Under the pieces are notes generated by a model that was not told the DNA's origin, ran no database searches, and saw only the letters and a program-made list of their open reading frames with translations. From the NCBI GenBank assembly GCA_963642815.1, contig CAVIIB010000011.1:21934-36178 (forward strand): 14,245 nucleotides of DNA, read 5' to 3'. Positions 990 to 14,245 of this stretch are shown piece by piece. Position 1 is the stretch's first letter. Every line of letters begins with the position of its first letter. Source of the DNA: Oscillospiraceae bacterium (GTDB taxonomy: Bacteria > Bacillota > Clostridia > Oscillospirales > Oscillospiraceae). The translations under genes were made by a program, and so were the position numbers.

Positions 990-1010
990 GGGGCAAAGGG
1001 GGTCTGCTAT

Positions 1011-1451
1011 ATGCTCTCCACGACGTTTATGCTCCTCGTCTCCGGCGCATTTCTCATGCTGCGCTTGGGCGAGACTGCCGGCTCGTTTCCGCGTCCGCTC
1101 CCGGCCAAGGAGGAGCGCCGCTGCGTCGAGGCGTGGCTGGCGGGGGACACGCAGGCGCGGAACAAGCTCATCGAGCATAACCTGCGGCTGGTCGTACATA
1201 TCGTCAAGAAATACTACGCCGCCTCCGCCGACGCGGAGGATCTCATCTCCATCGGCACCGTCGGTCTCATCAAGGGCGTATCGAGCTACCGCCCCGAAAA
1301 AAACGTCCGCCTCGCCACCTATGCGTCGAGGTGTATAGAAAATGCTATACTATCGAAACGGAAGAATCGGCGGCTGAGGTGGTGGAACGGGTGTCTTTTG
1401 AGGCAAAATGGCGCCTGCTGGCGAGAGTGGGAGTCCGCTGCTATATTCTGA
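1011..1451 (+). CDS. sigK: RNA polymerase sporulation sigma factor SigK, 5' segment only (spoIVCB-like); interrupted after codon 111
   Basis: ATG 1011 is preceded by AAGGGGG (996-1002). [111 protein letters not shown] matches B. subtilis pro-SigK along its length (..[67 protein letters not shown]..). After N111 (nt 1341-1343) the frame reads [19 protein letters not shown]... to a stop at 1449-1451, with no sigma regions 3/4. The track start at 912 is an upstream extension without an RBS. Confidence 0.85.
1333..1350. repeat. attL-like inverted repeat at the sigK break point
   Basis: GTATAG (1333-1338) and CTATAC (1345-1350) form a perfect 6-bp inverted repeat around AAAATG (1339-1344). SigK similarity ends at 1343/1344, inside the central spacer. 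Confidence 0.5.
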
Positions 1452-1687
1452 TTTCCAATGTATCGGGTGCGGTAAAAGCAGCTCCTCTCCAAATTCTTCA
1501 ATTTCCGGTGATACTGCCGCACAAGCTTCAGGAAGCGGAAAAGTTCAATTTGCAGTTCTCGGACTTTGCGGAAATCACCGAAACGGCGGACACGCTAGGT
1601 GTCAGTCTTGGCAGTCTCAAGCAGTGGGAACAAAACCGCAAGCAGATATTCAAATCCACGTGGGAGAAGTATTTCAAGCAGGCATAA
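1391..1687 (+). CDS. Small helix-turn-helix (XRE-like) DNA-binding protein; start uncertain
   Basis: The C-terminal part [30 protein letters not shown] has the FAxxLGVSxxTLxxWEQGRR HTH pattern. GTG 1391 has GAGGTG (1376-1381) 9 nt upstream. The track start at 1331 lies in the host sigK part and is unlikely. Alternative starts are GTG 1508 and TTG 1550. A terminator follows immediately. Confidence 0.45.
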
Positions 1688-1694
1688 CCATAGC

Positions 1695-1735
1695 AAACGG
1701 GCAGACCAGCCTTAAAAGCCGGTCTGCCCGTTTTT
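1695..1735. terminator. Rho-independent terminator shared by convergent genes
   Basis: A 13-bp stem AAACGGGCAGACC (1695-1707) / GGTCTGCCCGTTT (1721-1733) is followed by TT(TTT) on the + strand. The stop codon of the minus-strand 68-aa ORF lies inside the hairpin. Confidence 0.75.
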
Positions 1736-1918
1736 CGTATGTATCACTTGCCCCTTCAGATGCCTTGCCGCCGCGTCCACCAGCTCCAGCTTCTGCTCCG
1801 TGGAGCAGGGCAGCTTCTGGACATTTTTCAGCACCTGCTCGGACTGGAACTTCGCCAGCTCCTGTGCAAGCTCCTGCTTTGCCTGCCGGGACTTGGGGAA
1901 AATCAAAAATACTTCCAT
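1712..1918 (-). CDS. Hypothetical small protein (68 aa), coiled-coil-like and Lys/Glu/Gln-rich
   Basis: There is a strong SD: the minus strand reads GGAAAGGAGGGCAGCG-ATG, with AAGGAGG 6 nt from the ATG. The ORF ends in the shared terminator. No family recognised. Confidence 0.55.
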   Translation of the reverse strand: MEVFLIFPKSRQAKQELAQELAKFQSEQVLKNVQKLPCSTEQKLELVDAAARHLKGQVIHTKNGQTGF

Positions 1919-2034
1919 CGCTGCCCTCCTTTCCAGAGCATTTGCTGTTTCAATCTATGTCTGATTTGTAGAGTATATGTAAAGTTGCCTCTTTCTGATG
2001 GGGGTTATAGGGGGCAAACGCCCCCTCAAATTTG

Positions 2035-2052
2035 AATTGGGATATCCCAATT
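2035..2052. repeat. Perfect 18-bp palindrome AATTGGGATATCCCAATT (candidate operator)
   Basis: Read directly from the sequence. It is flanked by a GC hairpin AGGGGGC-aaac-GCCCCCT (2009-2026) and an imperfect palindrome AAGGTAACGG-tg-CCGTTTCCTT (2062-2083). It lies 90-165 nt upstream of the minus-strand 68-aa gene. Confidence 0.5.
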
Positions 2053-2220
2053 TGTTGCTTGAAGGTAACGGTGCCGTTTCCTTTCCTGTCCTGCGTCTCA
2101 CTCCGCAGAGTTTTTCCACTTCGGCCACATCATCGTTGGTACTGCACAGCGGCCAGCAGAAGCAGGAGATGCGCCGAATCGTCGGGCATGAGATGGTGGT
2201 TGACATAATACATGGCGGAG

Positions 2221-2253
2221 GAAAAACAAAGAGGCCCCACACCGGAGCCTCTT
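2221..2253 (-). terminator. Minus-strand rho-independent terminator-like hairpin with no obvious upstream gene
   Basis: The stem AAGAGGC (2229-2235) / GCCTCTT (2247-2253) is followed on the minus strand by TTGTTTTTC (complement of 2221-2228). Confidence 0.4.
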
Positions 2254-2365
2254 GGCGTTTAATATTTACGATGTATATGGCTTCTGCGCGGGCACCGGCT
2301 ACGGCACTATAGACAAGGCATGGGTAGGAAGATAGGCAGAGGTACTTTTCCTGCTTCCTGAGTAT

Positions 2366-2400
2366 AAATCCCTTAATACAGGCATAATAGTAAGGGATTT
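2366..2400. repeat. 10-bp perfect inverted repeat AAATCCCTTA / TAAGGGATTT with a 15-nt loop
   Basis: Read directly from the sequence. It sits just upstream of the fic promoter. A related TCCCTTA/TAAGGGA pair brackets the -10 region (2421-2450). Confidence 0.45.
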
Positions 2401-2413
2401 ATGGCACAGCCCA

Positions 2414-2442
2414 TTGACTATTCCCTTATTTTATATTATTAT
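2414..2442 (+). promoter_or_regulatory. SigmaA-type promoter for fic
   Basis: TTGACT (2414-2419), a 17-nt spacer, then TATTAT (2437-2442). The RBS GGAGGTG (2458-2464) lies 6 nt before ATG 2471. Confidence 0.5.
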
Positions 2443-2470
2443 TTAAGGGAAAACGAATGGAGGTGAGGGA

Positions 2471-3517
2471 ATGAGAACCTTCAATTACTCCGCAATCAAG
2501 GAACAAAAGTGGGACGCGGATATTCTTGGTCTGATTGCAGCCATATACAAGGAAGCCGGCAAGCAGGAACTGTATTTGAAGCAGCGCCCGGAGGAACTTG
2601 AAAAGCTCGTGGAGATTGCCAAGATACAGAGCACCGAGGCATCGAATGCCATCGAGGGCATCGTCACCACGAGTACCCGAATCCGGCAGCTCGTCGAGGA
2701 GAAAACCACGCCGAGAAACCGTGACGAGCAGGAAATTGCCGGATATCGCGATGTGCTGAGTATCATTCACGAGAGCTTTGACGCGATACCAATTACGCAG
2801 AACTACATTCTGCAGCTTCACAAAATCCTGTACAGCCACATGAACAACCCACTTGCGGGCCGCACCAAAGCTACGCAGAATTATATCACTGCCACCTACC
2901 CGGACGGTCATGTGGAAACGCTGTTCACCCCGCTTGCCCCTTATGAAACGCCGGAAGCGCTGGAGAGAATCTGCGAGGAATACAATCGAGTGATTGGCAA
3001 CATGGAACTGGAGCCGTTGATTGCGATCCCGGTTTTCATCCATGACTTTTTGTGCATCCACCCCTTCAATGACGGAAACGGAAGAATGAGTAGATTGCTC
3101 ACGACGCTGCTTCTGTACCGAAATGGTTTTTATGTTGGAAAGTACATCTCCCTTGAAGCTAAAATCGCCAAAAACAAGGATCTGTACTACGACGCACTTG
3201 CACAGGCGCAAACCGGCTGGCACGAAGGCACAGAAGATGTAGTGCCATTCATCAAGTACCTGCTCGGGACGATCCTTGCGGCATATAAGGACTTCGAGGA
3301 TCGTGTAGCGCTTGTGGAAACCAAGCTGCCCGCACTGGAAATGGTGCGCAGAGCAAGCAAAAACAGAATCGGGCGGTTCAACAAACAGGATATCCGAGAG
3401 CTTTGCCCGACGCTCAGTGACAGTTCCATTGAGGGGGCCCTCCGCAAACTGGTCGCAGCCGGTGAACTGAAGAAAGAAGGAAGAGGGAAAAATACCCGTT
3501 ACTTCAGGCTAAATTAA
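2471..3517 (+). CDS. fic: Fic family protein (class II, N-terminal inhibitory helix, C-terminal winged-helix-like domain)
   Basis: The Fic motif HPFNDGNGRMSR (nt 3059-3094) fits HxFx(D/E)GNGRxxR. The inhibitory motif SNAIEG (nt 2642-2659) fits (S/T)xxxE(G/N). The gene has a strong RBS and its own promoter and terminator. Confidence 0.9.
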   Translation: MRTFNYSAIKEQKWDADILGLIAAIYKEAGKQELYLKQRPEELEKLVEIAKIQSTEASNAIEGIVTTSTRIRQLVEEKTTPRNRDEQEIAGYRDVLSIIHESFDAIPITQNYILQLHKILYSHMNNPLAGRTKATQNYITATYPDGHVETLFTPLAPYETPEALERICEEYNRVIGNMELEPLIAIPVFIHDFLCIHPFNDGNGRMSRLLTTLLLYRNGFYVGKYISLEAKIAKNKDLYYDALAQAQTGWHEGTEDVVPFIKYLLGTILAAYKDFEDRVALVETKLPALEMVRRASKNRIGRFNKQDIRELCPTLSDSSIEGALRKLVAAGELKKEGRGKNTRYFRLN

Positions 3518-3545
3518 GAGCGCGACAAAGAGCAAAAAATAGCAG

Positions 3546-3917
3546 TCATTCAATATCAGAACGTGGCGGAATATCCGCGAAACCTTGCATGACAAAACCG
3601 TCGCCCCGACCGAAAATCGGGGCGGCGGTTTTATGCAGGGGAGAAAAGGGTCGCATTTGAGGCATGACAAGTAAGATGGGTTGCCGCTGGATAATCATTG
3701 TCTGCGGGTGTTTTTCCGGGATGGCGCGGTAAATTTCGTTGTCGGTGTAATTTTTATCTCTGAAGCTGTGGGTAACAAGCAGTCCCGTATCTGCCATGTA
3801 GCATTTTTGCGTGGTATTGTTCCGTTGTGAGAGCAATATGCGCCTGTATTCAACTTTGTAATATTGTCGGTGCGTTATTTCAATTTTACAAGTACGCGGC
3901 TGAATGATATTCTTTTG
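3546..3917 (-). pseudogene. Possible remnant of an AAA+ ATPase (DUF4143-type) gene
   Basis: The minus frame is open from 3917 to 3546. The upstream part ...YKVEYRRILLSQRNNTTQKCYMADTGLLVTHSF... resembles the KxYxxDTGLL segment of DUF4143 ATPases (from memory). There is no N-terminal ATPase domain and no RBS, and the frame runs through the fic terminator. Confidence 0.25.
3597..3632. terminator. Rho-independent terminator after fic (bidirectional-looking)
   Basis: A 13-bp stem ACCGTCGCCCCGA (3597-3609) / TCGGGGCGGCGGT (3617-3629, one G-T pair) is followed by TTT on the + strand. AAAA precedes it, which gives a T-run on the minus strand. Confidence 0.75.
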
Positions 3918-3935
3918 TCATAGATAATGACAAAA
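3913..3935. promoter_or_regulatory. Inverted repeat TTTTGTCAT-agata-ATGACAAAA, candidate operator upstream of the LysR gene
   Basis: Perfect 9-bp arms sit in the AT-rich 3837-4035 intergenic region, about 100 nt upstream of ATG 4036. The dyad is compatible with LTTR-type T-N11-A sites. Confidence 0.35.
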
Positions 3936-4035
3936 TGCACAAATGGAATAAAAAAGAATCTAAAATTCTTGTTGAAAACACCGTGTTGCTTGTTGTATTG
4001 TGTGTAGGACAAGACAATAAGAAAGGTGTGTAGTC

Positions 4036-4911
4036 ATGACTTTCAATCAGCTGAATTACTTCATTACAGTTGCAAGAAATCTGAGCTTCTCCCGTGCGGC
4101 TGAATTACTTTTTGTAACACAGTCCACGCTGAGCCGCAGCATCGCATCTATGGAAAGCGAATTGGGGGTCACATTATTCGACCGTGTTTATCACAATCTG
4201 AAGCTGACACCGGCAGGCGAGCTTATGCTTCGAGATGGCGTAAAGATCATGGATAGTATGAATTCCTTAATCGGGAGGATGCAGTCCATGGAGGAAAGTA
4301 AAAAGAAGCGCCTGACCATTGGCATTCTGGACGGGCAAAAGGTCGAAACAAGGGTTTTGCTTGCCGTCAAGCGAATATTGGAGGATATTCCGGAGTTTGG
4401 CATTGATATACGCCGGATGGACTATGAAACGGCTATACAGGGCGTTTCGGAGTCAAAGCTGGATGTCGTGCAAACCCTGATGTCCGCAGACACGGTGCTA
4501 GAGGACAGCGTTGACCAAATTCTTATAGAAGATGAGAGCTACTATTTGGTAGCCAGCAACGACGATCCGATCTGGCAGGAGTGGAACCAATCATCGCTGT
4601 CTGTGCTGGATAAGAAAGTGCTGCTGATGTCCCATGCGTATCCGGGGAATGACGACCTTCTTAAAAAGCTTTCCGACGCGGGAATCCTCTCAAGAGTAAA
4701 GGTCGTGCCCGACATGGAGACGCTTTCCCTTTGGCTCGAAGCAGGTATGGGCGTTTCTATATGCAATGCCAGCCATGTTACGTGCAGCTCTGGCGTAAAA
4801 AGATCCGTGCGGGCAGAGTGTCTGGACACACTTCCCAAAGCTCCAGTGGCCTTGCTTTGGAATAAAAACAATCTGTCTTCGCTGTTGGAGCTGTTCCTGT
4901 CATATATGTAA
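4036..4911 (+). CDS. LysR-family transcriptional regulator
   Basis: The N-terminal HTH MTFNQLNYFITVARNLSFSRAAELLFVTQSTLSRSIASMESELGVTLFDR is canonical for LTTRs. At 291 aa, the rest is a C-terminal substrate-binding-type domain. Confidence 0.9.
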   Translation: MTFNQLNYFITVARNLSFSRAAELLFVTQSTLSRSIASMESELGVTLFDRVYHNLKLTPAGELMLRDGVKIMDSMNSLIGRMQSMEESKKKRLTIGILDGQKVETRVLLAVKRILEDIPEFGIDIRRMDYETAIQGVSESKLDVVQTLMSADTVLEDSVDQILIEDESYYLVASNDDPIWQEWNQSSLSVLDKKVLLMSHAYPGNDDLLKKLSDAGILSRVKVVPDMETLSLWLEAGMGVSICNASHVTCSSGVKRSVRAECLDTLPKAPVALLWNKNNLSSLLELFLSYM

Positions 4912-4925
4912 GAAGCGAGATCTGC

Positions 4926-4954
4926 TTGCAAACCGGCACAGCACATAGGATTAT
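4926..4954 (+). promoter_or_regulatory. Candidate promoter of the oxidoreductase/ABC operon
   Basis: TTGCAA (4926-4931), a 17-nt spacer, then GATTAT (4949-4954), in the 80-nt gap between the LysR gene and the flavoprotein gene. Confidence 0.3.
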
Positions 4955-5006
4955 TGGTGGCAGGATGCCATTGATGATAAATAAACGATAGTTGGAGGTA
5001 AAGGCA

Positions 5007-6791
5007 TTGGACAAAGTAATCAAGGCTGATGTGCTGGTTATCGGCGGCGGTCAAGCCGGGTGGTTCGCGGCCATGAAGGCCCAGGAGCACGGTGCGAAGG
5101 TCGTCCTTGCGGATAAGGGCTATGCCGGAAAATCCGGTCAGTCACAGAACATCACCTGCATGGTGTATTTTGACCCGGAAAAGAACGATCTGAACAAATG
5201 GATTGAAGAGGGTGCCATCGCGGATGAGTGGCTCGAAAACCGCGACTGGGTTGAAACGGTCTATCTGGAAAGCAAGGCACGCTGGGACGACATGGCTCGC
5301 TGGGGAATGGTGTCCTGGCGCTACGATAAGAACGGCGATGCGTATCAAGCGCCGATCAACGGCTCTGACGATGAGCGCTGCCCCGGAGACCCTGAGGAGG
5401 ATCGTATTACAAATTACCTCATTGACAACCGCTATCACTACAAGCTGCGTCCTGTGTTCGAGAAGATCGGCGGCACGATCATCGACCGAATCATGATCAC
5501 CGACCTCATCAAGCAGGATGGGCGTATTGCGGGTGCCATCGGCTTCCGGGCGGACGAGGAGGACACTACATACATCTTCCATGTACCCGCCGTTGTGCTG
5601 GCTTGCGGCGCTGGTGGCATGAAGACGGCGGGCATCCGCACCACGACTACCACGGGCGACGCGCAGGCCATGGCTTACCGCATTGGCTGTGCAGTCACCG
5701 GTAAGGAATTTTCCGACCAGCACGGCGCTCGCGGCGATTTCCCGGCCTATCCATGGACGGGCAACGACCGCAACCCCTATTATCCGAAATACGATGAGAC
5801 CGTAAAGACGCTGGCGGAGCATCTGCCTCTTTACAACATCTATGAGCAGAAGGTCGACTGCAACCGTCCTAATCTGGAGCACCAGCACATTCTGCCTTTC
5901 AACGCGCTGGCGATGGCATGGGAAGCGCACTGCGGACGTGGCCCTGTGTTCTATAAGGTGGACGGCAATCCCGACACAGCGCCCATCAACCACAATCCGA
6001 GCGACAAGCCACGGGAAGAGGTCGATGAGGAATTCATGAAAAAGGGCATGGTTCGTATGTCCATCGGACGCGCCCTTGGTCAGTCCTATACCTTGGCCGA
6101 CGGCGTCTGGTCGGACGGACTGGAGTGCGAGACACAGGTTCCCGGCCTGTACGCCACCGGCGACTGCCTTGGTGCAAGGACAGGCTATCCCATGGCCGGG
6201 TTTGCAGCAGCCTTCACGGCTGTGTCCGGCTCTCGCGCCGGTATCAACGCCGCAGAATATGCGCAGAAATCCGGCGATTATGAACTCGATTCTAACGAGG
6301 TGGAGCGGCTAAAGAATACACTCTGGGCACCCATGAATCGGATCGGTGGCTTTACGCCCCGCTGGGCGATCCAGGTGATCCAAGACGCCTATCTTCCGTA
6401 CTGGATCTCCCTATATAAGAATGAGGAGCGGCTACAGGCAGCTCTGACAAATCTTCTATTCATCAGGGATAACATCATCCCCCAGCTCAAGGTCTACAAC
6501 AACCATGATCTGCGGCTGGCGCACGAGGCTCGGAACATCATTCTCCATATGGAGATGAAGATCCGTGCGGCTCTGATGCGCAAGGAAAGCCGCTGGTATC
6601 ACTACCGAGAGGATTACCCCCTGCGTGACGACGAAAACTGGCTTTGCTGGATAAAGATTCAGGATGTGAACGGCGAAATGACCTTTACTAAGATTCCGGT
6701 GCCTGAGAAGTGGCACCCCGATCACTCCCTGCCCTACAAGGAGCGCTATCCGATCCAGTTCCCCAATGAACCGGCTGTCCTGCCGAACTAA
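5007..6791 (+). CDS. FAD-dependent oxidoreductase, succinate dehydrogenase / fumarate reductase / APS reductase (AprA)-like flavoprotein
   Basis: It has an N-terminal Rossmann motif DVLVIGGGQAGWFAAMKAQEHGAKVVLADKG, a distal FAD motif YATGDCLGARTG, and a C-terminal RKESRWYHYREDYPLRDDENW typical of the FrdA/SdhA/NadB/AprA capping region. The likely start is TTG 5007, with GGAGG at 4994-4998 (8 nt upstream); the track start TTG 4992 overlaps that RBS. Confidence 0.85.
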   Translation: MDKVIKADVLVIGGGQAGWFAAMKAQEHGAKVVLADKGYAGKSGQSQNITCMVYFDPEKNDLNKWIEEGAIADEWLENRDWVETVYLESKARWDDMARWGMVSWRYDKNGDAYQAPINGSDDERCPGDPEEDRITNYLIDNRYHYKLRPVFEKIGGTIIDRIMITDLIKQDGRIAGAIGFRADEEDTTYIFHVPAVVLACGAGGMKTAGIRTTTTTGDAQAMAYRIGCAVTGKEFSDQHGARGDFPAYPWTGNDRNPYYPKYDETVKTLAEHLPLYNIYEQKVDCNRPNLEHQHILPFNALAMAWEAHCGRGPVFYKVDGNPDTAPINHNPSDKPREEVDEEFMKKGMVRMSIGRALGQSYTLADGVWSDGLECETQVPGLYATGDCLGARTGYPMAGFAAAFTAVSGSRAGINAAEYAQKSGDYELDSNEVERLKNTLWAPMNRIGGFTPRWAIQVIQDAYLPYWISLYKNEERLQAALTNLLFIRDNIIPQLKVYNNHDLRLAHEARNIILHMEMKIRAALMRKESRWYHYREDYPLRDDENWLCWIKIQDVNGEMTFTKIPVPEKWHPDHSLPYKERYPIQFPNEPAVLPN

Positions 6792-6805
6792 AGAGAGGTG
6801 TAAAC

Positions 6806-7024
6806 ATGGCTATTGAGAGAATCGACCTTGGGAAATGTGTGGGCTGCGGCACCTGCCGAAATGTTTGCAGCTGTGATGTTATCCGGCTCGACGACAAGGG
6901 TATGCCCTATATCAAATATAAGGACGAGTGCTGTGTGTGCCTGTACTGCATGGAGGATTGCCCCACGGGCGCGATCTATGTAGCGCCGGAGAAATATCTG
7001 AAGCAGAAAAACGCCTGGGGCTGA
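6806..7024 (+). CDS. 2x[4Fe-4S] ferredoxin (72 aa)
   Basis: Two cluster motifs are present: CVGCGTCRNVC and CVCLYCMEDCP. The RBS AGAGGTG lies 5 nt upstream, and the gene starts 14 nt after the flavoprotein stop. Confidence 0.85.
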   Translation: MAIERIDLGKCVGCGTCRNVCSCDVIRLDDKGMPYIKYKDECCVCLYCMEDCPTGAIYVAPEKYLKQKNAWG

Positions 7025-7071
7025 CATAAGCGCAGGATGTGACCCATACCCCACCATGATAACGAAAAAAT

Positions 7072-7096
7072 GGTGTCCACCGGGATGCTGGACACC
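7072..7096. other. Intra-operon stem-loop GGTGTCCA-ccgggatgc-TGGACACC
   Basis: An 8-bp stem sits between the ferredoxin and SBP genes, flanked by A-runs on the + strand, so it is not a + strand terminator. It may be an mRNA processing or stability element. Confidence 0.35.
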
Positions 7097-7126
7097 AAAA
7101 ATAAAACAGAAAGTTGAGGTATTGCA

Positions 7127-8743
7127 ATGAAAAAGACCCTATCGCTCCTTCTGGCTCTTGTGCTTTGCCTTGGTATGCTGACCGCCTGTGGCAGCAGTGA
7201 GCCAGTGGAAGAAGACAGCGCAGCGGTGACCGAAGCGGTCAAGGAGGAAACCGTCTTGGAGGTGGAGGCTGCCGCAGTTCCCGAAGGCAAGACAGACCTT
7301 GTTGTGGGCGGCTTTACGGACACCACATCCTTTGATCCCTTGTCGGAGACCAATGACACGAGCATCATGATCGGCCTCTGTGTGTTCGACAACCTCTTCA
7401 CCCTGAACGACGACGGAAGTTTTAATTACCAGCTTGCCGAAAATGCGGAGTGGGTCGAGAATGACGGCGCATGGTCCGTTGTGATCACGCTGAAACCGGG
7501 GATCAAGTTCCATTCTGGGGACGAGCTTTCCTGTGAGGATGTGCTTTTTACCTTGCAGCGTATGTCCGACAACTTCATGTACAGCAGCCGCGTCTCAGCT
7601 GCCAACTTTGATGAGGCGGTCATCGACGGAAACACGCTCACCATTCCCATGCATCGGTATGATGCTCGCTTCCTGCCTAATCTGACCAGTGAGCTCGGCT
7701 ATATTCTGAACAAGAGCTACGTTGAGGAGGTCGGCGATGAGAAGGCCTTCCAGCAGCCCGACGGCACCGGCCCGTATGTCTTTACGAAGTGGGTCACCAA
7801 CGAATCCGTCACGCTCACCCGCAACGAGGAATACTGGGGCGATGCCGGAGCGTTTGAGACGATCGTCTACAAATTCTTCTCCGATGACAACACGAGAGTT
7901 CTGGAGTTTGAGGCCGGCAATCTGGACATCTGCGCCGTGGAATCCGGCGAAAATCTGGACAGCCTCGCGGCTGGTGATTATGAGGGCTGCGGCCTGTATA
8001 CATGGCTGACAAACAAGATGGGTATGCTGTTCTTCAACAACAGCACGGAGAGTTCGCCTTTCTATGAGAACCCCGCACTGCGCAAGGCAGTGGCCGCAGC
8101 CATTGACCTGGAAGCAATCGTTGAGTCCATGGGCGGCTCCACTACGGTCGCTGCGACCTCCTCGTTGCCCACCAGCGCTGCCGCCTATGCGGAGCATCTG
8201 AATGTCTATGACCCTGAGCTTGCCAAGCAGTATCTGGAGGAAGCGGGCTATCCGAACGGCTTCTCTTTCACCTTTATGGTCGCTTCCGATCAGGGCTCCA
8301 ACCTAAAAATGGCGGAGGCTATCCAGGCATATCTGAGCCAGGTTGGCATCGAAATGACGATCGAACCGCTGGATCTCGGCACGCTCATGGGCTATCAGAT
8401 GAGCGGCGAACAGGTCTGCGGCATCGTGGATAACACCATCCGCGGCGATGACTATGAGATGTATCAGAACCAGGAGCTCGGCTCCGGCAACAAGCTTACG
8501 GAGATCCACAATGATGATTATCAGGCTCTGCTCAGCAGCATCCTCTCCGAGCGGGATCATGATACTCGTATCAAGCTGTTCCAGGAGATTCAGGACACGG
8601 TCTATGACCAGTGCTACTTTGTGCCGCTGTATCAGAACCGTGGCGCGTGGGCCTATCAGGACTATGTGACCGGTCTAGATGAAAACGGCGTTCTCACAGC
8701 GGAGAAAATCGTGGACTTTGCTGCGCTCGGCTTTGTCAAGTAA
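7127..8743 (+). CDS. ABC transporter substrate-binding lipoprotein, family 5 (Opp/Dpp/Nik type)
   Basis: The signal peptide carries the lipobox MKKTLSLLLALVLCLGMLTA-C. Family-5 hallmarks are present (..LAENAEWVENDGAWSVVITLKPGIKFHSGDELSCEDVLFTLQRM..). The RBS GAGGT lies 6 nt upstream. Confidence 0.9.
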   Translation: MKKTLSLLLALVLCLGMLTACGSSEPVEEDSAAVTEAVKEETVLEVEAAAVPEGKTDLVVGGFTDTTSFDPLSETNDTSIMIGLCVFDNLFTLNDDGSFNYQLAENAEWVENDGAWSVVITLKPGIKFHSGDELSCEDVLFTLQRMSDNFMYSSRVSAANFDEAVIDGNTLTIPMHRYDARFLPNLTSELGYILNKSYVEEVGDEKAFQQPDGTGPYVFTKWVTNESVTLTRNEEYWGDAGAFETIVYKFFSDDNTRVLEFEAGNLDICAVESGENLDSLAAGDYEGCGLYTWLTNKMGMLFFNNSTESSPFYENPALRKAVAAAIDLEAIVESMGGSTTVAATSSLPTSAAAYAEHLNVYDPELAKQYLEEAGYPNGFSFTFMVASDQGSNLKMAEAIQAYLSQVGIEMTIEPLDLGTLMGYQMSGEQVCGIVDNTIRGDDYEMYQNQELGSGNKLTEIHNDDYQALLSSILSERDHDTRIKLFQEIQDTVYDQCYFVPLYQNRGAWAYQDYVTGLDENGVLTAEKIVDFAALGFVK

Positions 8744-8756
8744 TTTACACCGCAAC

Positions 8757-8782
8757 CAAGGGGCGTTTTACGACGCCCCTTG
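8757..8782 (+). terminator. Stem-loop after the SBP gene (attenuator/stabiliser; no T-tract)
   Basis: A 10-bp stem CAAGGGGCGT / ACGCCCCTTG with loop TTTACG lies 14 nt after the stop. The lack of a U-run suggests partial termination or 3' end protection, as is common after SBP genes. Confidence 0.4.
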
Positions 8783-8841
8783 CCTTGCATGGTGTCCTCA
8801 TCCTGTTACGGCGTTTTTGTGAACAGACAAGGAGATTCTCG

Positions 8842-9900
8842 ATGATCAAATACACAATAAAACGGCTTCTGCTGATGATCCCTATACTGCTTGGGGTAAT
8901 TCTTGTCGTTTTCACCATCAATTATTTTTCCACCGGCTCACCGGCTATGGCGCTGCTGGGCAGCGCGGCGACACCGGAGAACATCGCGTCGGTCGAACAT
9001 GAGCTGGGTCTGGATCGTCCCTATTTTGTCCAGCTGGGAGAGTATTTGTGGAATATTATCACCAAGTTCGATCTTGGAAACTCCTATGCGTATAAGCGGC
9101 CAGTGATCGAAATGATCGGCGAGGTGGTCGGAAAAACCGTCGCGCTGGGTCTTTTGGGGACGGCTTTATGTATATTGATCGGCGTACCGCTGGGCATATT
9201 TGCGGCAACAAAGCAATACTCCGTCATTGACTATATCTCCACGATCTTCGCGACACTTCTGGCGGCGCTTCCCAGCTTTTGGCTTGCGCTTATGCTTATG
9301 CTCTTGTTCTCGGTAAAGCTGGGATGGCTACCGATATCGGGTCTGGACGGGCCGCTGAGCTATATTCTGCCGGTGCTGTCGATCGGTGCGTTCCCAGTGG
9401 CGATGATCACCCGCATGACCCGTTCGTCCATGCTAGAGGTCATCCGTCAGGACTACATCGTGACGGCGAAAGCCAAGGGACTGCCATCTTCCGTCGTTAT
9501 TTTCCGCCATGCCATGAGAAACGGCATGATCCCGGTCGTGACCATGATCGGTGTGAGCGCCGGCCTCGCTATGACCGGCACTATCATCATCGAGACGATC
9601 TTCAACATACCGGGCATGGGTATGCTGATGAACTCCGCCATCAATAAATACGACTATCTTCTCACACAGGGTGTCGTCCTCATCTGCGCCATCATCATCT
9701 GTGGGACAAATCTCCTGACTGATCTGGTGTATGCGCTCATTGACCCAAGGATCCGGGAGCAGTATGCGAATTCCGCCCGCCATGCCGGAGGGCGTCTGGC
9801 GGCAAAGAAAAAGAAGCGTGAGATCCAAGAAGAAGCCGCAGAGGCTGTATCACGGCAGCCCTTACAGAGCGATGAGGCGGGAGGGGAAAACGATGGCTAA
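8842..9900 (+). CDS. ABC transporter permease (DppB/OppB type) with a hydrophilic C-terminal tail
   Basis: ATG 8842 (MIKYTIKRLLLMIPILLGV...) has GGAG 7 nt upstream; the track start 8785 is an extension. The protein has the usual ..DPRIR ending, followed by a 47-aa charged tail. Confidence 0.9.
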   Translation: MIKYTIKRLLLMIPILLGVILVVFTINYFSTGSPAMALLGSAATPENIASVEHELGLDRPYFVQLGEYLWNIITKFDLGNSYAYKRPVIEMIGEVVGKTVALGLLGTALCILIGVPLGIFAATKQYSVIDYISTIFATLLAALPSFWLALMLMLLFSVKLGWLPISGLDGPLSYILPVLSIGAFPVAMITRMTRSSMLEVIRQDYIVTAKAKGLPSSVVIFRHAMRNGMIPVVTMIGVSAGLAMTGTIIIETIFNIPGMGMLMNSAINKYDYLLTQGVVLICAIIICGTNLLTDLVYALIDPRIREQYANSARHAGGRLAAKKKKREIQEEAAEAVSRQPLQSDEAGGENDG

Positions 9901-10792
9901 GACCAAGCAAGAAAGCTGCGCCCTTGTAAAACAGGAGGCGAGCGATACCAAGAAGCGCTCCCAGGCAGAGGAGACATGGCGTGGACTGAAAAAGAACAAG
10001 CTTGCCATGGTGTCGCTGGCGTTTATCATTGTTTTGGTGCTTTCCTGCGCCTGTGCCGACTGGCTGGCGCCATACGATTATGATAAGATCGATCTCTCCG
10101 CCCGTATGCAGCTTCCCAGCTGGGAGCATTTGATGGGTACGGATGATTTTGGACGGGATATTTTCTCCCGCATACTTTACGGAGGCAGGGTCTCTCTGCT
10201 GGTGGCTCTGTGTACGGTCGCAGCCAGCATTGTGATCTCCACTATTCTGGGTGCGACTGCCGGTTATTTTGGCGGCTGGTATGATAACCTTGTCATGCGG
10301 CTGACCGATGTATTTATGGCGATCCCCGGTATGCTCCTTTCTATTTCCGTCTGCGCGGCTCTTGGCTCCGGCATTGTGAATACCGGCATCGCCATGACCG
10401 TCTGCAATATTCCGAGCCTGACCCGTGTGGTGCGCTCCTCAACGCTGCTGCTCCGCGATCAGGAATACATCGAGGCGGCTACTTCCTTCGGCGCAGGGCG
10501 GTGGCATATTATCAAACGCCACATCATCCCCAATATTCTGGCGCCTATCATCGTGCAGTCGTCTCTGAAACTCGGTGATGCCATTCTGTCTATCGCGGGA
10601 CTGAGCTTCATCGGTTTGGGGATACAGCCGCCGACACCGGAATGGGGCTCCATGCTCAATAGCGGCAGGGAGTTCATCCGTTCCTTCTGGCCGCTCATTA
10701 CCTTCCCCGGTATCATGATCGCGCTCACCATGCTTGCCTTTAACCTACTGGGAGACGGACTGCGGGATGCCATGGATCCCCGGCTCAAGTGA
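9893..10792 (+). CDS. ABC transporter permease (DppC/OppC type)
   Basis: ATG 9893 (MAKTKQES...) has GGAGGGG upstream and overlaps the upstream stop (ATGGCTAA). The C-terminus ..LLGDGLRDAMDPRLK is typical. The track start 9731 overlaps the previous gene by 170 nt and is unlikely. Confidence 0.9.
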   Translation: MAKTKQESCALVKQEASDTKKRSQAEETWRGLKKNKLAMVSLAFIIVLVLSCACADWLAPYDYDKIDLSARMQLPSWEHLMGTDDFGRDIFSRILYGGRVSLLVALCTVAASIVISTILGATAGYFGGWYDNLVMRLTDVFMAIPGMLLSISVCAALGSGIVNTGIAMTVCNIPSLTRVVRSSTLLLRDQEYIEAATSFGAGRWHIIKRHIIPNILAPIIVQSSLKLGDAILSIAGLSFIGLGIQPPTPEWGSMLNSGREFIRSFWPLITFPGIMIALTMLAFNLLGDGLRDAMDPRLK

Positions 10793-10804
10793 GGAGGGAC
10801 GAAG

Positions 10805-11782
10805 ATGAATAAGCTGCTGGAAGTCAAAAATCTAGTCGTTGAATACAAGACCGATGAGAGCATAATACACGCGGTCAACGGTGTGAGCTTTGCTGTTGAG
10901 GAGGGTAAGGTTTTGGGCATTGTCGGCGAGACAGGTGCCGGAAAGACTACGACCTGCAAAAGCATACTGAGGCTCATATCGGAGATCAACGGAAAGATCA
11001 AAGAGGGCGAGATCCTTTATAGAGGCATGGACATTCTCAAAATGTCCGATGTCGAGATGGGAAAGATCCGGGGCGGAGAGATATCCATGATTTTTCAGGA
11101 TCCGATGACAGCGCTGAATCCGATCATGACCGTGGGAAAACAGATCGGAGAGATCATACGCCGCCATCAAAAGTGCTCGCGGGCGGAGACAGAGCTCCGG
11201 GTCGCGGAGATGCTGGAGCGCGTGGGTATCAGCCGGGAGAGAGCCTCGGACTATCCCCACCAGTTCTCCGGCGGCATGAAGCAGCGTGTGGTGATTGCGA
11301 TGGCGCTTGCGTGCAATCCATCCCTGCTGCTGGCGGACGAGCCGACGACGGCGCTGGATGTCACCATTCAGGCACAAATGCTTGAGATGATAAAACGTCT
11401 TCAGGAGGAATATCATACAGCTATGATCCTTATTACCCATGATTTGGGGATCGTGGCAGAGACCTGTGATTATGTGGGGATCATGTACGCTGGCGAGATC
11501 GTGGAGTTCGGCTCTGCCCAGCACATTTTCGAGAATGCGCGACATCCCTACACGCAAGGATTATTTAACGCTATTCCAAGCATTGACAAGCGCGTGAAGC
11601 GTCTGGCGGTCATTCCGGGGCTTGTGCCGGATCCGTCAGACCTGCCGGAGGGGTGCAGGTTTAGCCCCCGCTGCGGCTGCCATACCGGCGTATGCAGCGA
11701 GTGCTGCCCCAGCTATGAAGAGGTGGAGCAGGGACATTTGGTGAAATGCTTCCATGCTTGGAAAGGAAAGGACGGAGAATGA
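10805..11782 (+). CDS. ABC transporter ATP-binding protein (OppD/DppD type)
   Basis: It has Walker [10 protein letters not shown], signature FSGGMKQR, Walker [14 protein letters not shown]-loop ITHDL, and an oligopeptide-type C-terminal domain with a Cys cluster. The RBS GGAGGG lies upstream. Confidence 0.9.
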
Positions 11783-12729
11783 CCATGAGCTCGATTTTGA
11801 CTGTAAAGCATCTAAAGAAACACTTCAATTCAGCTCACGGTATCATTCACGCAGTTGAAGATATTTCCTTTGATGTAGAGGAGCGCACAACGCTGGGAGT
11901 TGTGGGAGAATCCGGCTGCGGAAAATCCACGCTCGGCAGAATGATCGTCGGACTTTCAGAACCTACCGATGGCGAGGTGAGCTTTGACGGCGTGAATATC
12001 ACTAGTCTGAAAAAGAGGGAGCGCAGCGAATTTCGCAGGAAAATGCAGATGGTATTCCAGGACCCGTCCTCCAGCCTTGATCCCCGTATGTCCGTTCACG
12101 ACCTTATTGAGGAACCGCTGGTGGTAGCTAAGACCTGCCGGACGTCGGCGGAGAGAACGGCCAGAGTGCGGCAGATGATGGACACGGTGGGGCTGGCCTC
12201 GCGATTTGAGTACTCATATTCTCATGAGCTGGACGGTGGCCGGCGGCAGCGCATCGGTATTGCGCGGGCACTGGTGCTCAATCCGCAGTTTATCGTCTGC
12301 GACGAGCCGGTTTCGGCGCTGGATGTGTCCATTCAAGCACAGATCCTGAATCTTTTACAGGATCTGCAGGATGAGCTTGGCCTTACCTATCTGTTTATCA
12401 CCCACGATCTGGCGGTGGTGAATCATATCTCCGACTCCATTCTGGTCATGTATATGGGAGCGGCGGTGGAAATGGCCCCGGTGGACGAGCTTTTCAAGAA
12501 CCCGAAGCACCCGTATACGCACGGTTTGCTTTCAGCCATTCCCATTCCCAAGCTGCGGCCTGAGCGCAAACGCTTTTTGCTGCAAGGGGAAGTCACGAAG
12601 CCGGATGGGAAGCCCGGATGCAAATTCGCCCCGCGCTGTCCCAAGGCGTCAGAGGAATGCTTCTCCGTGACACCACAGCTGCAAAGCGTGGGCGAGCAGC
12701 ACCGCGTGGCCTGCCACCACATCGAGTAA
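11779..12729 (+). CDS. ABC transporter ATP-binding protein (OppF/DppF type)
   Basis: It has Walker A GESGCGKST, Walker B FIVCDEPVSALD and H-loop ITHDL; the signature reads LDGGRRQR (atypical). ATG 11779 overlaps the upstream TGA (ATGA). ATG 11785, with GGAG 7 nt upstream, is an equally good start. Confidence 0.9.
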   Translation: MTMSSILTVKHLKKHFNSAHGIIHAVEDISFDVEERTTLGVVGESGCGKSTLGRMIVGLSEPTDGEVSFDGVNITSLKKRERSEFRRKMQMVFQDPSSSLDPRMSVHDLIEEPLVVAKTCRTSAERTARVRQMMDTVGLASRFEYSYSHELDGGRRQRIGIARALVLNPQFIVCDEPVSALDVSIQAQILNLLQDLQDELGLTYLFITHDLAVVNHISDSILVMYMGAAVEMAPVDELFKNPKHPYTHGLLSAIPIPKLRPERKRFLLQGEVTKPDGKPGCKFAPRCPKASEECFSVTPQLQSVGEQHRVACHHIE

Positions 12730-12782
12730 ACGCGAGTTTATTTGCATGAGCGCTGCGCTCAAAAATGTATCATTTGGGGCAC

Positions 12783-12876
12783 AAAGCCTCTGCTTTTTCC
12801 TCTCCGACCGCCGCAAGTAGGCGGGGTTGGTGTTTTCCAATGGAACACACCTGTGAGGCAAAGCAGAGGCTTTTTT
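12783..12876 (+). terminator. Compound terminator / three-way structured element after the ABC operon
   Basis: A perfect 14-bp outer stem AAAGCCTCTGCTTT (12783-12796) / AAAGCAGAGGCTTT (12860-12873) is followed by TTT. It encloses two inner hairpins: CCGACCGCC..GGCGGGGTTGG and the near-palindrome GGTGTTTTCCAATGGAACACACC. Confidence 0.6.
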
Positions 12877-12955
12877 CGTGGAAACCAACATTTTTCAAAA
12901 GCAAAAAAAGAGAACGCTTTTCTCGGAAATATTTTCGGATTCTTCCCTTGACACC

Positions 12956-12984
12956 TTTTCAAATGGATTCCAAACCGTTATAAT
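12956..12984 (+). promoter_or_regulatory. Candidate promoter of the recombinase gene
   Basis: A perfect TATAAT (12979-12984) has a weak -35 TTTTCA 17 nt upstream (12956-12961). A perfect TTGACA at 12948-12953 is 25 nt away, which is too far. Confidence 0.3.
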
Positions 12985-13021
12985 ATATCTACCAACCTAA
13001 CAAATAACGCGAGGTGTCGCT

Positions 13022-14245
13022 ATGAAAACGAAAGACAAGCCGCAGGCGAAGCAATACGTCATTTATTCCCGCAAATCCAAATTTACCGGCAAGGGCGAGA
13101 GTATTGAAAACCAGATCGAGCTTTGCCGCCAGTATATTGCCATGCACTTTGGCGAGGACGCGGCGGAAAACGCGCTGGTGTATGAGGACGAGGGCTTTTC
13201 CGGCGGCAATCTGGAGCGCCCGCAGTTCAAGAAAATGATGAAGGACTCGCAGAAGATCGAATTTGCGGCCATCGTGGTCTACCGTCTCGACCGTATCAGC
13301 CGCAACATCGGTGACTTTGTAAAGCTCATTGAAGACTTGGGCGACCGGCATATTGACTTCATTTCCGTCCGGGAGCAATTCGATACGTCCTCTCCCATGG
13401 GGCGGGCGATGATGTATATTGCATCGGTGTTCTCCCAGCTGGAGCGGGAGACCATTGCCGAGCGCATCCGGGACAACATGCACGAGCTGTCCAAGACCGG
13501 GCGCTGGCTTGGTGGCACGACGCCCACGGGCTACGCCTCGGAAAGCCTGTCCAGCGTGACAGTGGACGGCAAGGTGAAGAAGGCTTGCAAGCTCAAGCCC
13601 ATTCCGGAGGAAATTCAGCTTGTCAAGATGATTTTCTCTGTATTTATGGAGACCGGCTCTCTCAGCAAGACCGATCAGTACCTGTTGGAGCACCGCTGCG
13701 TCACGAAGCGCGGCAAGCAGTTCACGCGATTTGCCATCCGGGGCATTCTGACCAATCCGGTCTACATGATTGCCGACGAGACGGCGTATCAGTATTTGAA
13801 AGAAAACAATGTTGACCTGTCTGCCGAACGCTCGGAGTTTGACGGCGAACACGGCATTATGGCATATAATCGTACCCTCCAGCGCCCCGGAAAGGCGAAC
13901 CAGATCCGTCCGATGGAGGAATGGATCGTGGCGGTGGGCAAGCATCCCGGCATCATCGCTGGCAGCGACTGGGTGCAGGTGCAGGCCATGCTGGATGTAA
14001 ACAAATCCAAGAGCTACCGCAGACCGCGCAGCAATGTGGCGCTGCTGTCCGGCCTGCTGCGGTGCGGCGAATGCGGCGATTATATGCGCCCGAAGCTGAC
14101 CAACCGCCGCACGGCGGACGGCGAACTGATCTACACCTACATGTGCTCCACCAAGGAGCGCAGCCACAGCACGGTCTGCGGCATGAAAAACTGCAACGGC
14201 AACACGCTGGACGCCAAGATCATCGAGGAGATCCGCAAGCTGTCC
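13022..14245 (+). CDS. Large serine recombinase (SpoIVCA/TndX-like), N-terminal 408 codons; 3' end outside window
   Basis: I translated this frame by hand: ATG 13022 (GAGGTG 5 nt upstream) stays open through 14245 with no stop, so it is absent from the track. Resolvase-domain motifs are present: YVIYSRKSKF (catalytic Ser), VVYRLDRISRN, and SVREQFDTSSPMGRAMMYIASVFSQLERETIAERIRD. These are followed by a recombinase domain (GRWLGGTTPTGY) and a zinc ribbon (LLRCGECGDYM...YMCSTKERSHSTVCG). Confidence 0.9.
   Translation, partial: MKTKDKPQAKQYVIYSRKSKFTGKGESIENQIELCRQYIAMHFGEDAAENALVYEDEGFSGGNLERPQFKKMMKDSQKIEFAAIVVYRLDRISRNIGDFVKLIEDLGDRHIDFISVREQFDTSSPMGRAMMYIASVFSQLERETIAERIRDNMHELSKTGRWLGGTTPTGYASESLSSVTVDGKVKKACKLKPIPEEIQLVKMIFSVFMETGSLSKTDQYLLEHRCVTKRGKQFTRFAIRGILTNPVYMIADETAYQYLKENNVDLSAERSEFDGEHGIMAYNRTLQRPGKANQIRPMEEWIVAVGKHPGIIAGSDWVQVQAMLDVNKSKSYRRPRSNVALLSGLLRCGECGDYMRPKLTNRRTADGELIYTYMCSTKERSHSTVCGMKNCNGNTLDAKIIEEIRKLS

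Follow-up and report, generated by a model that had tools for sequence, protein, structure and literature searches.

What kind of DNA splits the sporulation gene sigK in an Oscillospiraceae bacterium, and is it removed again during development? The question is raised by a stretch of 14,245 nt (hereafter the window; GCA_963642815.1, contig CAVIIB010000011.1, positions 21,934–36,178, forward strand), where the 5′ half of sigK runs into DNA that ends, at the window edge, in a large serine recombinase gene. Such intervening sequences, the skin elements, are the textbook example of developmentally programmed DNA excision in bacteria and are usually described as dead prophages. The reading that we favor, and consider probable, is that position 1345 to the window end makes up most of a sigK-intervening (skin-type) element of about 13.4 kb, which is not a prophage and which undergoes developmental excision.

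The 5′ half of sigK (spoIVCB-like) occupies 1011–1344 on the plus strand, as do all genes and promoters below unless stated otherwise. It matches Pfam Sigma70_r2, and its best NCBIfam match is TIGR02846 (spore_sigmaK), of which it covers only profile positions 2–119 of 227. It encodes the N-terminal 111 codons of pro-sigma-K; no frameshift or stop lies ahead of the junction, and the open reading frame (ORF) reads on into element DNA to 1451. The coding sequence is interrupted at an attachment site, attL (1333–1361, GTATAGAAAATG|CTATAC TATCGAAACGG), which was compared with attL, attR and attB of related loci. The sigK fragment ends in an AATG core (1341–1344) inside an imperfect palindrome, and the element-derived arm starts at 1345, with the insertion inside sigK codons CIEN|EIL. 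In the sigK frame the junction reads TGT ATA GAA AAT G|CT ATA CTA TCG; the element arm imitates the sigK codons, with AIL for EIL, and agrees with the family consensus.

The right end of the element can be read from relatives of the recombinase. The recombinase gene (13022–14245; Pfam Resolvase, Recombinase and Zn_ribbon_recom; SpoIVCA-like role) is cut by the window end, leaving the first 408 codons, visible and intact, of an expected 570–572. Scanning one genome per species gave 186 relatives; the 80 loci retained span many Oscillospirales genera, with 73–98% amino acid (aa) identity to the visible part. Of these 80, 57 have the sigK 3′ half behind the recombinase, on the same strand. It begins at the first residue past the break in all 57 except L037, and mostly starts about 500 bp beyond the part matching the window end. 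In each of 12 loci checked, the recombinase, 570–572 aa long, ends with ...PLGEDSE*, and its TGA lies across the attR core (GAA TGA G); the sigK 3′ half of the relatives begins 7 nt after this TGA. Full-length relatives with their stop codon in attR share 96–98% aa identity with the window recombinase. As read from these sequences, the attP/attR arm of the relatives consists of the last recombinase codons, and sigK provides the stop codon. The recombinase gene thus reaches into the right att arm, and the element lies to the left of it. By homology, the window element would end near 14740, some 500 bp past the window, which would give the total of about 13.4 kb.

The right junctions (attR) of relatives read ...GGATAGCGAATG|AGATCCTGATG, and the intact sigK (attB) of one locus, L065, reads ...GAAAATGAAATTCTTATG. 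Only AATG (window 1341–1344) is common to attL, attR and attB, and attL joined to attR reconstitutes C-I-E-N-E-I-L-M. The reconstructed attP, CCGTTGGGAGAGGATAGCGAATGCTATACTATCGAAACGG, is an imperfect palindrome with its centre in or beside the AATG core, as expected for a serine-recombinase site. On the excised circle the attP stretch is predicted to read ...GGATAGCGAATGCTATAC.... The attL is the sole attP-like match in the window, against none in 200 shuffles. Since the window has no second att-like site, it does not hold two tandem elements, and a tandem or composite element within it was ruled out. L065 itself (990–3003 and 11068–11658) is a contig of a metagenome-assembled genome; besides the intact, uninterrupted sigK it has, about 8 kb off, a recombinase with a sigK 3′ fragment behind it.

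The synonymous divergence (dS) of the recombinase from its relatives is 0.34–0.47, and the ratio of nonsynonymous to synonymous divergence (dN/dS) of about 0.03 indicates that the gene is functional and strongly constrained. Its best NCBIfam match is CcrB, under the cut-off of that family. The gene is preceded by a conserved backbone segment (12742–13021; 80–92% DNA identity in related loci) with hairpins, an inverted repeat and a promoter. DNA similarity upstream of the recombinase ends at about 12931 in most loci and at 12742 in six. The promoter, found by promoter scan, is sigma-70-like (12956–12984, TTTTCA-17-TATAAT); the recombinase CD1231 of Clostridium difficile likewise has a sigma-A-type promoter (PMC5025042). 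Upstream of it, at 12761–12895, lie two hairpins and an imperfect inverted repeat of 36 nt, its arms 72% complementary and separated by 63 nt; these structures may insulate the recombinase from cargo transcription or act as a regulatory site.

The post-crossover frame of the recombinase on the circle, across attP, stays open for 114 codons (1343–1684), and a C-terminal extension of the protein by read-through was considered. It was rejected as a conserved feature, the tails of relatives being unrelated and of low complexity; the part of the frame that is conserved is explained by a separate XRE-like gene. Other read-through forms were seen among relatives. In the proteins P0004 and P0017, which represent clusters of 1180 and 231 near-identical recombinases, WKMNVIFNG... 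follows ...GEDSE without a stop, which suggests integration beside a different, non-sigK sequence. In L081 and L083 (about 11700–13300; proteins P0009 and P0010) the recombinase ORF passes ...GEDSE into a perfect palindromic junction, GGATAGCGAATGCTATCC, with a second, inverted recombinase next to it; such structures may be genuine head-to-head arrays or fold-backs of the assembly. The 667-aa form of the recombinase is indexed in 44 blocks from several sources.

The other end of the element carries a second conserved gene. This gene, here called small68 (1712–1918, minus strand), encodes a 68-aa protein of an unnamed family of 58–68 aa. Genes of the family lie on the strand opposite to sigK, between a few tens of bp and about 370 bp from attL. 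A member stands at the left end of all six elements with a visible left end, five of them complete; homologues are present in L015, L083, L063, L064 and L105, and also in L108–L127. One and the same small68 sequence is shared by at least three different host contexts. The family comprises 894 protein clusters, and none of the 120 listed has a Pfam domain or a source name. The gene is under purifying selection (dN/dS 0.10–0.15). The structure model predicts a two-helix hairpin with a mean predicted local distance difference test score (pLDDT) of 73, and a Foldseek search of it against PDB gave no match below E = 3.

Upstream of small68 lies a candidate mother-cell-type (sigma-E-like) promoter (1952–1980, minus strand), ACATATA, a 14-nt spacer and CATAGATT, which starts 62 nt upstream of the start codon. 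The two-part motif (A/G)CATAnn-N14/15-CATAGAkT lies at −58 to −62 from the start codon in 13 of 17 homologous upstream regions (about six distinct sequences), with unrelated spacers separating its halves. Among the 17 regions it is missing from the L020-type copies, which lie just upstream of the recombinase (L020, L027 and L023), and from L064. The background of a relaxed form of the pattern is 0.0045 per 150 nt across loci. The motif resembles the published consensus for sigma-E of the mother cell (an ATA-type −35 and a CATA-type −10), and sigma-E would be the factor that reads it.

Between attL and small68 stands a shortened XRE-like backbone gene (1424–1687; its start codon is uncertain, the frame being open from 1331). 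It aligns to the N-terminal 61 aa and the C-terminal 33 aa of 180–196 aa HTH_3/HTH_19/HTH_31 proteins at the same position in relatives (against L083:922–1476, BLASTP E 3e-27 and 2e-12); the window copy has no Pfam match. Many relatives keep near attL such a 180–196 aa XRE-type gene and a 67-aa ORF. The XRE-like gene and small68 converge on an inverted repeat with 19-nt arms, 89% complementary (1695–1733), likely a bidirectional terminator. The left-end DNA of the window (1334–1959) recurs in L014, L015 and L083, at 3–9 kb upstream of the same recombinase. Across the family only the recombinase, the att arms and the 58–68 aa protein are conserved. The backbone is a minimal site-specific recombination unit: attL, the opposite-strand 58–68 aa protein on the left and the large serine recombinase on the right.

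A mechanism can be proposed by analogy with the two best-known systems. In C. difficile, a constitutive recombinase and a mother-cell-controlled small factor have been shown experimentally for CD1231 and CD1234 (PMC5025042). In Bacillus subtilis, excision needs a directionality factor of about 60 aa, Skr (64 aa; PMC6957869). These precedents, together with the constitutive-type promoter of the recombinase and the mother-cell-type promoter of the small gene, lead us to propose small68 as a candidate recombination directionality factor, which is the weakest link of the model. The recombinase would be made from its sigma-A-type promoter, as the promoter motif and the analogy with skinCd of C. difficile and skin of B. 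subtilis suggest. The small68 protein would be made only in the mother cell, from the sigma-E-like promoter, and would act there as the directionality factor. Recombination of attL with attR would then restore sigK in the mother cell, and the forespore would keep the element. The Fic gene and the operon described below would act as ordinary vegetative genes, inherited through the spore and removed only from the terminal mother-cell chromosome.

The cargo of the element is not that of a prophage. The ORFs of the window were scanned against Pfam, NCBIfam and PHROGs, and the window also against Rfam and for tRNA. From 1345 to 14245 no ORF matches a capsid, tail, terminase, portal, lysis, relaxase, oriT accessory, coupling or type IV secretion system family. 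The integrase is the only PHROG match with an assigned phage function; the others are of unknown function, or marginal or partial (E 0.0097 and 9e-6). The Rfam and tRNA scans of the window were empty, and no RNA element offered a clue to the substrate of the operon. Behind the left-end backbone comes a Fic-domain protein (2471–3517; Pfam Fic, E 8e-17; phrog_5978, E 5e-82), preceded by a sigma-70-like promoter (2414–2442, promoter scan). Other elements of the family have unrelated Fic genes.

A metabolic module follows, with a LysR-family regulator as its first gene (4036–4911; Pfam HTH_1 and LysR_substrate). The regulator is followed by a flavoprotein of the SdhA/FrdA/AprA superfamily (4992–6791; Pfam FAD_binding_2/Succ_DH_flav_C), a 72-aa ferredoxin with two [4Fe-4S] clusters (6806–7024; Pfam) and an Opp/Dpp-type ATP-binding cassette (ABC) importer (7127–12729). 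The importer is complete, with all five components in full length: an SBP_bac_5 binding lipoprotein (7127–8743; Pfam and NCBIfam), two permeases of the OppB and OppC types (8842–9900 and 9893–10792; BPD_transp_1) and two ATPases with the oligo_HPY C-terminal domain (10805–11782 and 11779–12729). The genes from LysR to the last ATPase (4036–12729, 8.69 kb) are co-directional and tightly spaced; one operon makes up about 65% of the element. The first-pass annotation of this DNA, made from the sequence alone, had placed an intervening element at 1344–14245 and described its Fic, LysR, flavoprotein–ferredoxin and importer genes, a coherent co-directional block of about 8.7 kb, and an absence of phage and conjugation genes over about 12.9 kb. 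All of this agrees with the family scans and the att comparison, and the start coordinate is exact, the AATG core ending at 1344.

The flavoprotein misses every curated cut-off of NCBIfam, its best score being 168 bits against a cut-off of 587. Its PDB relatives are the SdhA protein and the alpha subunits of adenosine 5′-phosphosulfate (APS) and 3′-phosphoadenosine 5′-phosphosulfate (PAPS) reductases. A fumarate reductase/succinate dehydrogenase or an APS reductase proper was rejected, the score being below the equivalog cut-off and the partner a bare 72-aa ferredoxin. Its membership can thus be stated, from sequence comparison, only at the level of the superfamily. For the binding protein, the ligands of its PDB relatives are peptides, nickel, haem, glutathione or opines, and the solute of the operon would be peptide-, opine- or metal-chelate-like, judged by the type of the binding protein. 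Elsewhere, in L092/L093:1253–12018, two paralogous flavoprotein–ferredoxin pairs, an Oxidored_FMN/Pyr_redox_2 enzyme and a LysR regulator lie beside a pst/phoU operon, a chromosomal cluster which suggests that LysR-linked reductases form a paralogue-rich family here.

How did the operon enter the element? Two ancestral backbone remnants lie between the Fic gene and LysR (3534–3734; 77–92% identity by blastn, and blastx matches to the HTH_17/DUF2442 cluster). The stretch 3534–3636 matches DNA about 350 bp upstream of the recombinase in relatives, and 3673–3734 holds a 60-bp piece of the HTH_17/DUF2442 gene, which lies directly 5′ of the recombinase in 11 loci. The conserved backbone restarts at 12742, 12 bp past the stop of the last ATPase. 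At the other side, the DNA matches the closest stand-alone module, that of L091, from 4035 onwards, where LysR has its start codon; the L091 flavoprotein, the nearest one at 87% identity, is on a 9-kb contig that has no sigK. The eight-gene order is the same in L094 (47–73% aa identity), and a related arrangement is present in L095; neither contig contains sigK or the recombinase. Outside the window element the operon is found only as diverged copies, with 47–87% aa identity and no sigK or recombinase nearby, and a metagenome scan with the binding protein gave none above 58%. The remnants and the stand-alone copies argue for insertion of the module into a pre-existing element. We infer that the eight genes form an independent functional unit, put into an older element, where it replaced most of a backbone gene. 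An older element of the family would have taken up the LysR-regulated module between the Fic gene and the recombinase, and this insertion would have destroyed the HTH_17/DUF2442 gene.

Other members of the family carry other cargo. Complete elements with both sigK halves are L015 (7.9 kb), L028/L105 (10.2 kb), L063 (6.1 kb) and L064 (5.8 kb). The stretches 5′ of the recombinase in the 80 loci contain 446 ORFs in 325 clusters, 275 of them singletons; for loci with over 10 kb between the sigK 5′ half and the recombinase, the upstream genes are not provably all inside the element. The cargo of the window is carried by none of the 80. Defence genes are represented by restriction-modification, AIPR, AbiEii, SIR2, Wadjet and DUF3427 nuclease-helicases. 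Further cargo includes Fic- and HipA-like proteins, RepA_N, NikA/MobC, primase, RecD-type helicase, YqaJ, TetR and several oxidoreductases. Pfam families detected in the upstream stretches number 121, and no phage structural family is among the 25 commonest. Relatives with NikA/MobC and RepA_N show no relaxase in the stretches seen.

Two of the complete elements are metabolic. L028/L105 (23 contigs) has between small68 and the recombinase only LysR, a transporter, acyl-CoA dehydrogenase, electron-transfer flavoprotein (ETF) alpha/beta, CoA-transferase and MaoC dehydratase. L063 carries a GH39 glycosidase and a metallo-beta-lactamase-fold protein. The cargo can differ at one host locus: L108/L109 and L111 share the locus, small68 and the recombinase, and carry either a single 1589-aa protein that lacks a Pfam domain or a pair of proteins, 624 and 427 aa long. 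In L113 a second element (recombinase, HTH_17/DUF2442, primase, RecD and YqaJ) directly follows small68, forming a tandem array. In L060, L061 and L070, whose recombinases are about 74% identical, the recombinase adjoins the sigK 5′ half and converges on it, like spoIVCA of B. subtilis. The junction there is the same as the window attL, GAAAATG|CTATAC..., and from this layout and junction it follows that elements of the family occur in both orientations.

The elements have moved between hosts. In 170 of 171 locus pairs the recombinases are more alike (median identity 93.5%) than the SigK C-terminal halves next to them (median 53%). With the recombinase dS of 0.34–0.47, the transfers are not very recent, yet much younger than the divergence of the hosts. 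A genome labelled Faecalibacterium prausnitzii APC923/61-1 (L009) has a recombinase with 97% identity to the L002 protein, and the sigK 3′ half behind this gene has only 39% identity to its Oscillibacter counterpart. The family occurs widely among gut Oscillospirales, has spread between genera, and swaps its cargo freely. A full-text search of the open-access literature found no paper describing this recombinase/small68 family.

Several points weigh against a skin-type element that is still excised. The XRE-like gene of the window has an internal deletion of about 85 aa; the 67-aa ORF, RepA_N and NikA/MobC of relatives are missing from the window, and HTH_17/DUF2442 is only a remnant. The role of small68 in directionality is a guess from co-occurrence, size, position and promoter, and if the HTH_17/DUF2442 protein were the true directionality factor, the window element could be locked in. 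The attR and the sigK 3′ half lie beyond the window end, and completeness is argued entirely from homology. No contig with the window cargo was found by assembly-index look-ups of the Fic protein and the ATPase or by flavoprotein and binding-protein searches. Excision of the window element is itself an extrapolation. F. prausnitzii (L009), a host of related elements, is regarded as non-sporulating. The main rival is a decayed and locked-in insertion, in which sigK would be permanently split, the host would be non-sporulating or use another sigK copy, and the element would be a fixed genomic island. The loss of backbone genes from the window copy would fit it, as would the related loci with recombinase and sigK 3′ half in genomes labelled F. 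prausnitzii, and in L065 an intact sigK is found together with a recombinase and a sigK 3′ piece. Against it, the recombinase is intact over its 408 codons and small68 is intact with its promoter motif, both at the low dN/dS given above, the sigK 5′ half is uninterrupted before the junction, and the attL arm fits the consensus of the family. We judge a locked-in insertion unlikely.

A different objection is that the sporulation link is incidental, the element being chiefly a horizontal, integrative mobilisable one that excises vegetatively for transfer and uses sigK as a mere landing pad. In its favour, conservation across genera is much higher for the recombinase than for the host sigK; genes for RepA_N, NikA/MobC, primase and RecD-type proteins are present in relatives; cargo differs at one host locus (L108 and L111); and arrays of elements exist. 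The window copy, however, has no replication or mobilisation gene by Pfam and PHROGs, and the conserved small68 promoter belongs to the mother-cell CATA class and not to the sigma-A class. Mobility is moreover compatible with developmental excision, as SP-beta does both (PMC4191935), and we give this explanation a small chance. The first-pass annotation had also allowed that the recombinase might belong to a separate element beginning near 12900. Such an element would run rightwards, as the edge of a prophage or of an integrative and conjugative element (ICE), with 1345–12900 as ordinary chromosome beside a sigK fragment. The end of homology upstream of the recombinase, at about 12931 or 12742, would look like such a boundary if taken alone. 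In about 60 related loci, though, the recombinase lies at the right edge of a sigK-intervening element, with its stop in attR and the sigK 3′ half directly after it. The left-end backbone (1345–1990) is common to L014, L015 and L083, at 3–9 kb 5′ of the same recombinase, and backbone remnants lie at 3534–3734. Nor is 1345–12900 syntenic core genome, as no related locus carries it and the operon occurs elsewhere only in diverged form; to the right only about 500 bp of element would be left by homology, which leaves no phage or ICE modules immediately there. A separate element is thus very improbable, and the skin-type element with developmental excision stays the preferred reading.

Among known systems, the skin of B. 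subtilis is alike in splitting sigK and in having a large serine recombinase at the element edge. Its N-terminal sigK fragment is of similar length, and the site may be the same. It differs in being 48 kb long and prophage-derived, whereas the window element has no phage genes. Its recombinase gene stands beside the 5′ half on the opposite strand and is itself sigma-E dependent. Also, skr overlaps the 5′ end of spoIVCA, and no Skr-like ORF overlapping the recombinase 5′ end was found in the window. The B. subtilis skin further carries an accessory ars operon regulated by ArsR (PMC12607644), so that a regulated accessory operon in a skin element is not new in principle. The skinCd of C. difficile is likewise compact (14.6 kb), with a sigma-A-type recombinase promoter and a small factor under sigma-E/SpoIIID control (PMC5025042). 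It is, however, prophage-like and inserted at another sigK position in the opposite orientation, in a host whose sigma-K has no pro-sequence. CD1234, at about 15 kDa (PMC5025042), is larger than the small68 family of 58–68 aa, the two being compared by size only.

Another non-phage case is the gin element (GirC/GirX), which interrupts gerE, a mother-cell sporulation gene, in Bacillus cereus ATCC 10987. Its excision takes a serine recombinase and a small factor; it carries defence-type cargo (restriction-modification) and shows signs of horizontal spread (PMC5595907). It differs in its target gene and in having three recombinase genes, and no metabolic operon is reported for it. Staphylococcal cassette chromosome (SCC) elements resemble the present family as cassettes moved by serine recombinases (Ccr) at one conserved site, with interchangeable non-phage cargo and arrays or composites. 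SCC, however, does not inactivate its target gene, orfX/rlmH, at whose 3′ end it inserts; it usually relies on two recombinases and has no developmental role.

The catalogued skin elements range from 2.6 to 48 kb and have no common genes but the recombinase (bioRxiv 10.1101/2022.02.25.481979). One of them, in Caproiciproducens sp. NJN-50, has 114-aa sigK halves, a 562-aa same-strand recombinase just 5′ of the 3′ half, 12.1 kb and 11 ORFs (Table S7 of that work), and by this description it probably belongs to the same family. The cargo, att sites, conserved small protein and inter-genus spread are not covered in that catalogue, by Galperin et al. The statement of the first-pass annotation that known skin elements are prophage-like was thus too strong, since small non-phage ones are catalogued there, gin in gerE is non-phage (PMC5595907) and an ars operon is present in the B. 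subtilis skin (PMC12607644). In the family at hand, cargo other than phage genes is the norm, and L028/L105 is a purely metabolic element. What appears to be new is an element free of phage genes with one catabolic operon over about 65% of its length. Also apparently new is a large inter-genus Oscillospirales family with a two-gene recombination unit, defined att sites, swapped cargo and a candidate directionality factor under a mother-cell-type promoter.

The skin device is here stripped to a recombination unit that carries host-useful genes, whole regulated catabolic operons among them, in abundant spore-forming gut commensals. If excision is confirmed, the family would be a widespread one in which to study how serine-recombinase units gain and swap cargo. 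It would also offer a new family of candidate directionality factors with defined att sites, possibly usable as recombinase tools, and a testable link between sporulation-based transmission and inherited accessory metabolism and defence in the gut microbiome. A broader proposal, which we regard as tentative and rather doubtful, is that these elements are a general cargo platform of gut Oscillospirales. Their two-gene unit would use sigK CIEN|EIL as a universal landing pad, move between genera, exchange defence islands and catabolic operons, and divide its cargo between germ line and soma. If so, the importer and oxidoreductase would be removed, or left on the excised circle, in the terminal cell as sigma-K switches on, and a nutrient-use trait would be tied to spore-borne transmission between hosts.

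The unassigned region in front of sigK (1–1010) contains three 34-nt direct repeats at 666–834 (GACGCAATCCGCACGGGACGCGCTGAGGCAAAGA), with a period of 67–68 nt, just upstream of the sigK 5′ half. They have no Rfam match. Two are identical and the third is 82% identical, in a layout that resembles a tiny array of clustered regularly interspaced short palindromic repeats (CRISPR) or of repetitive extragenic palindromes (REP).

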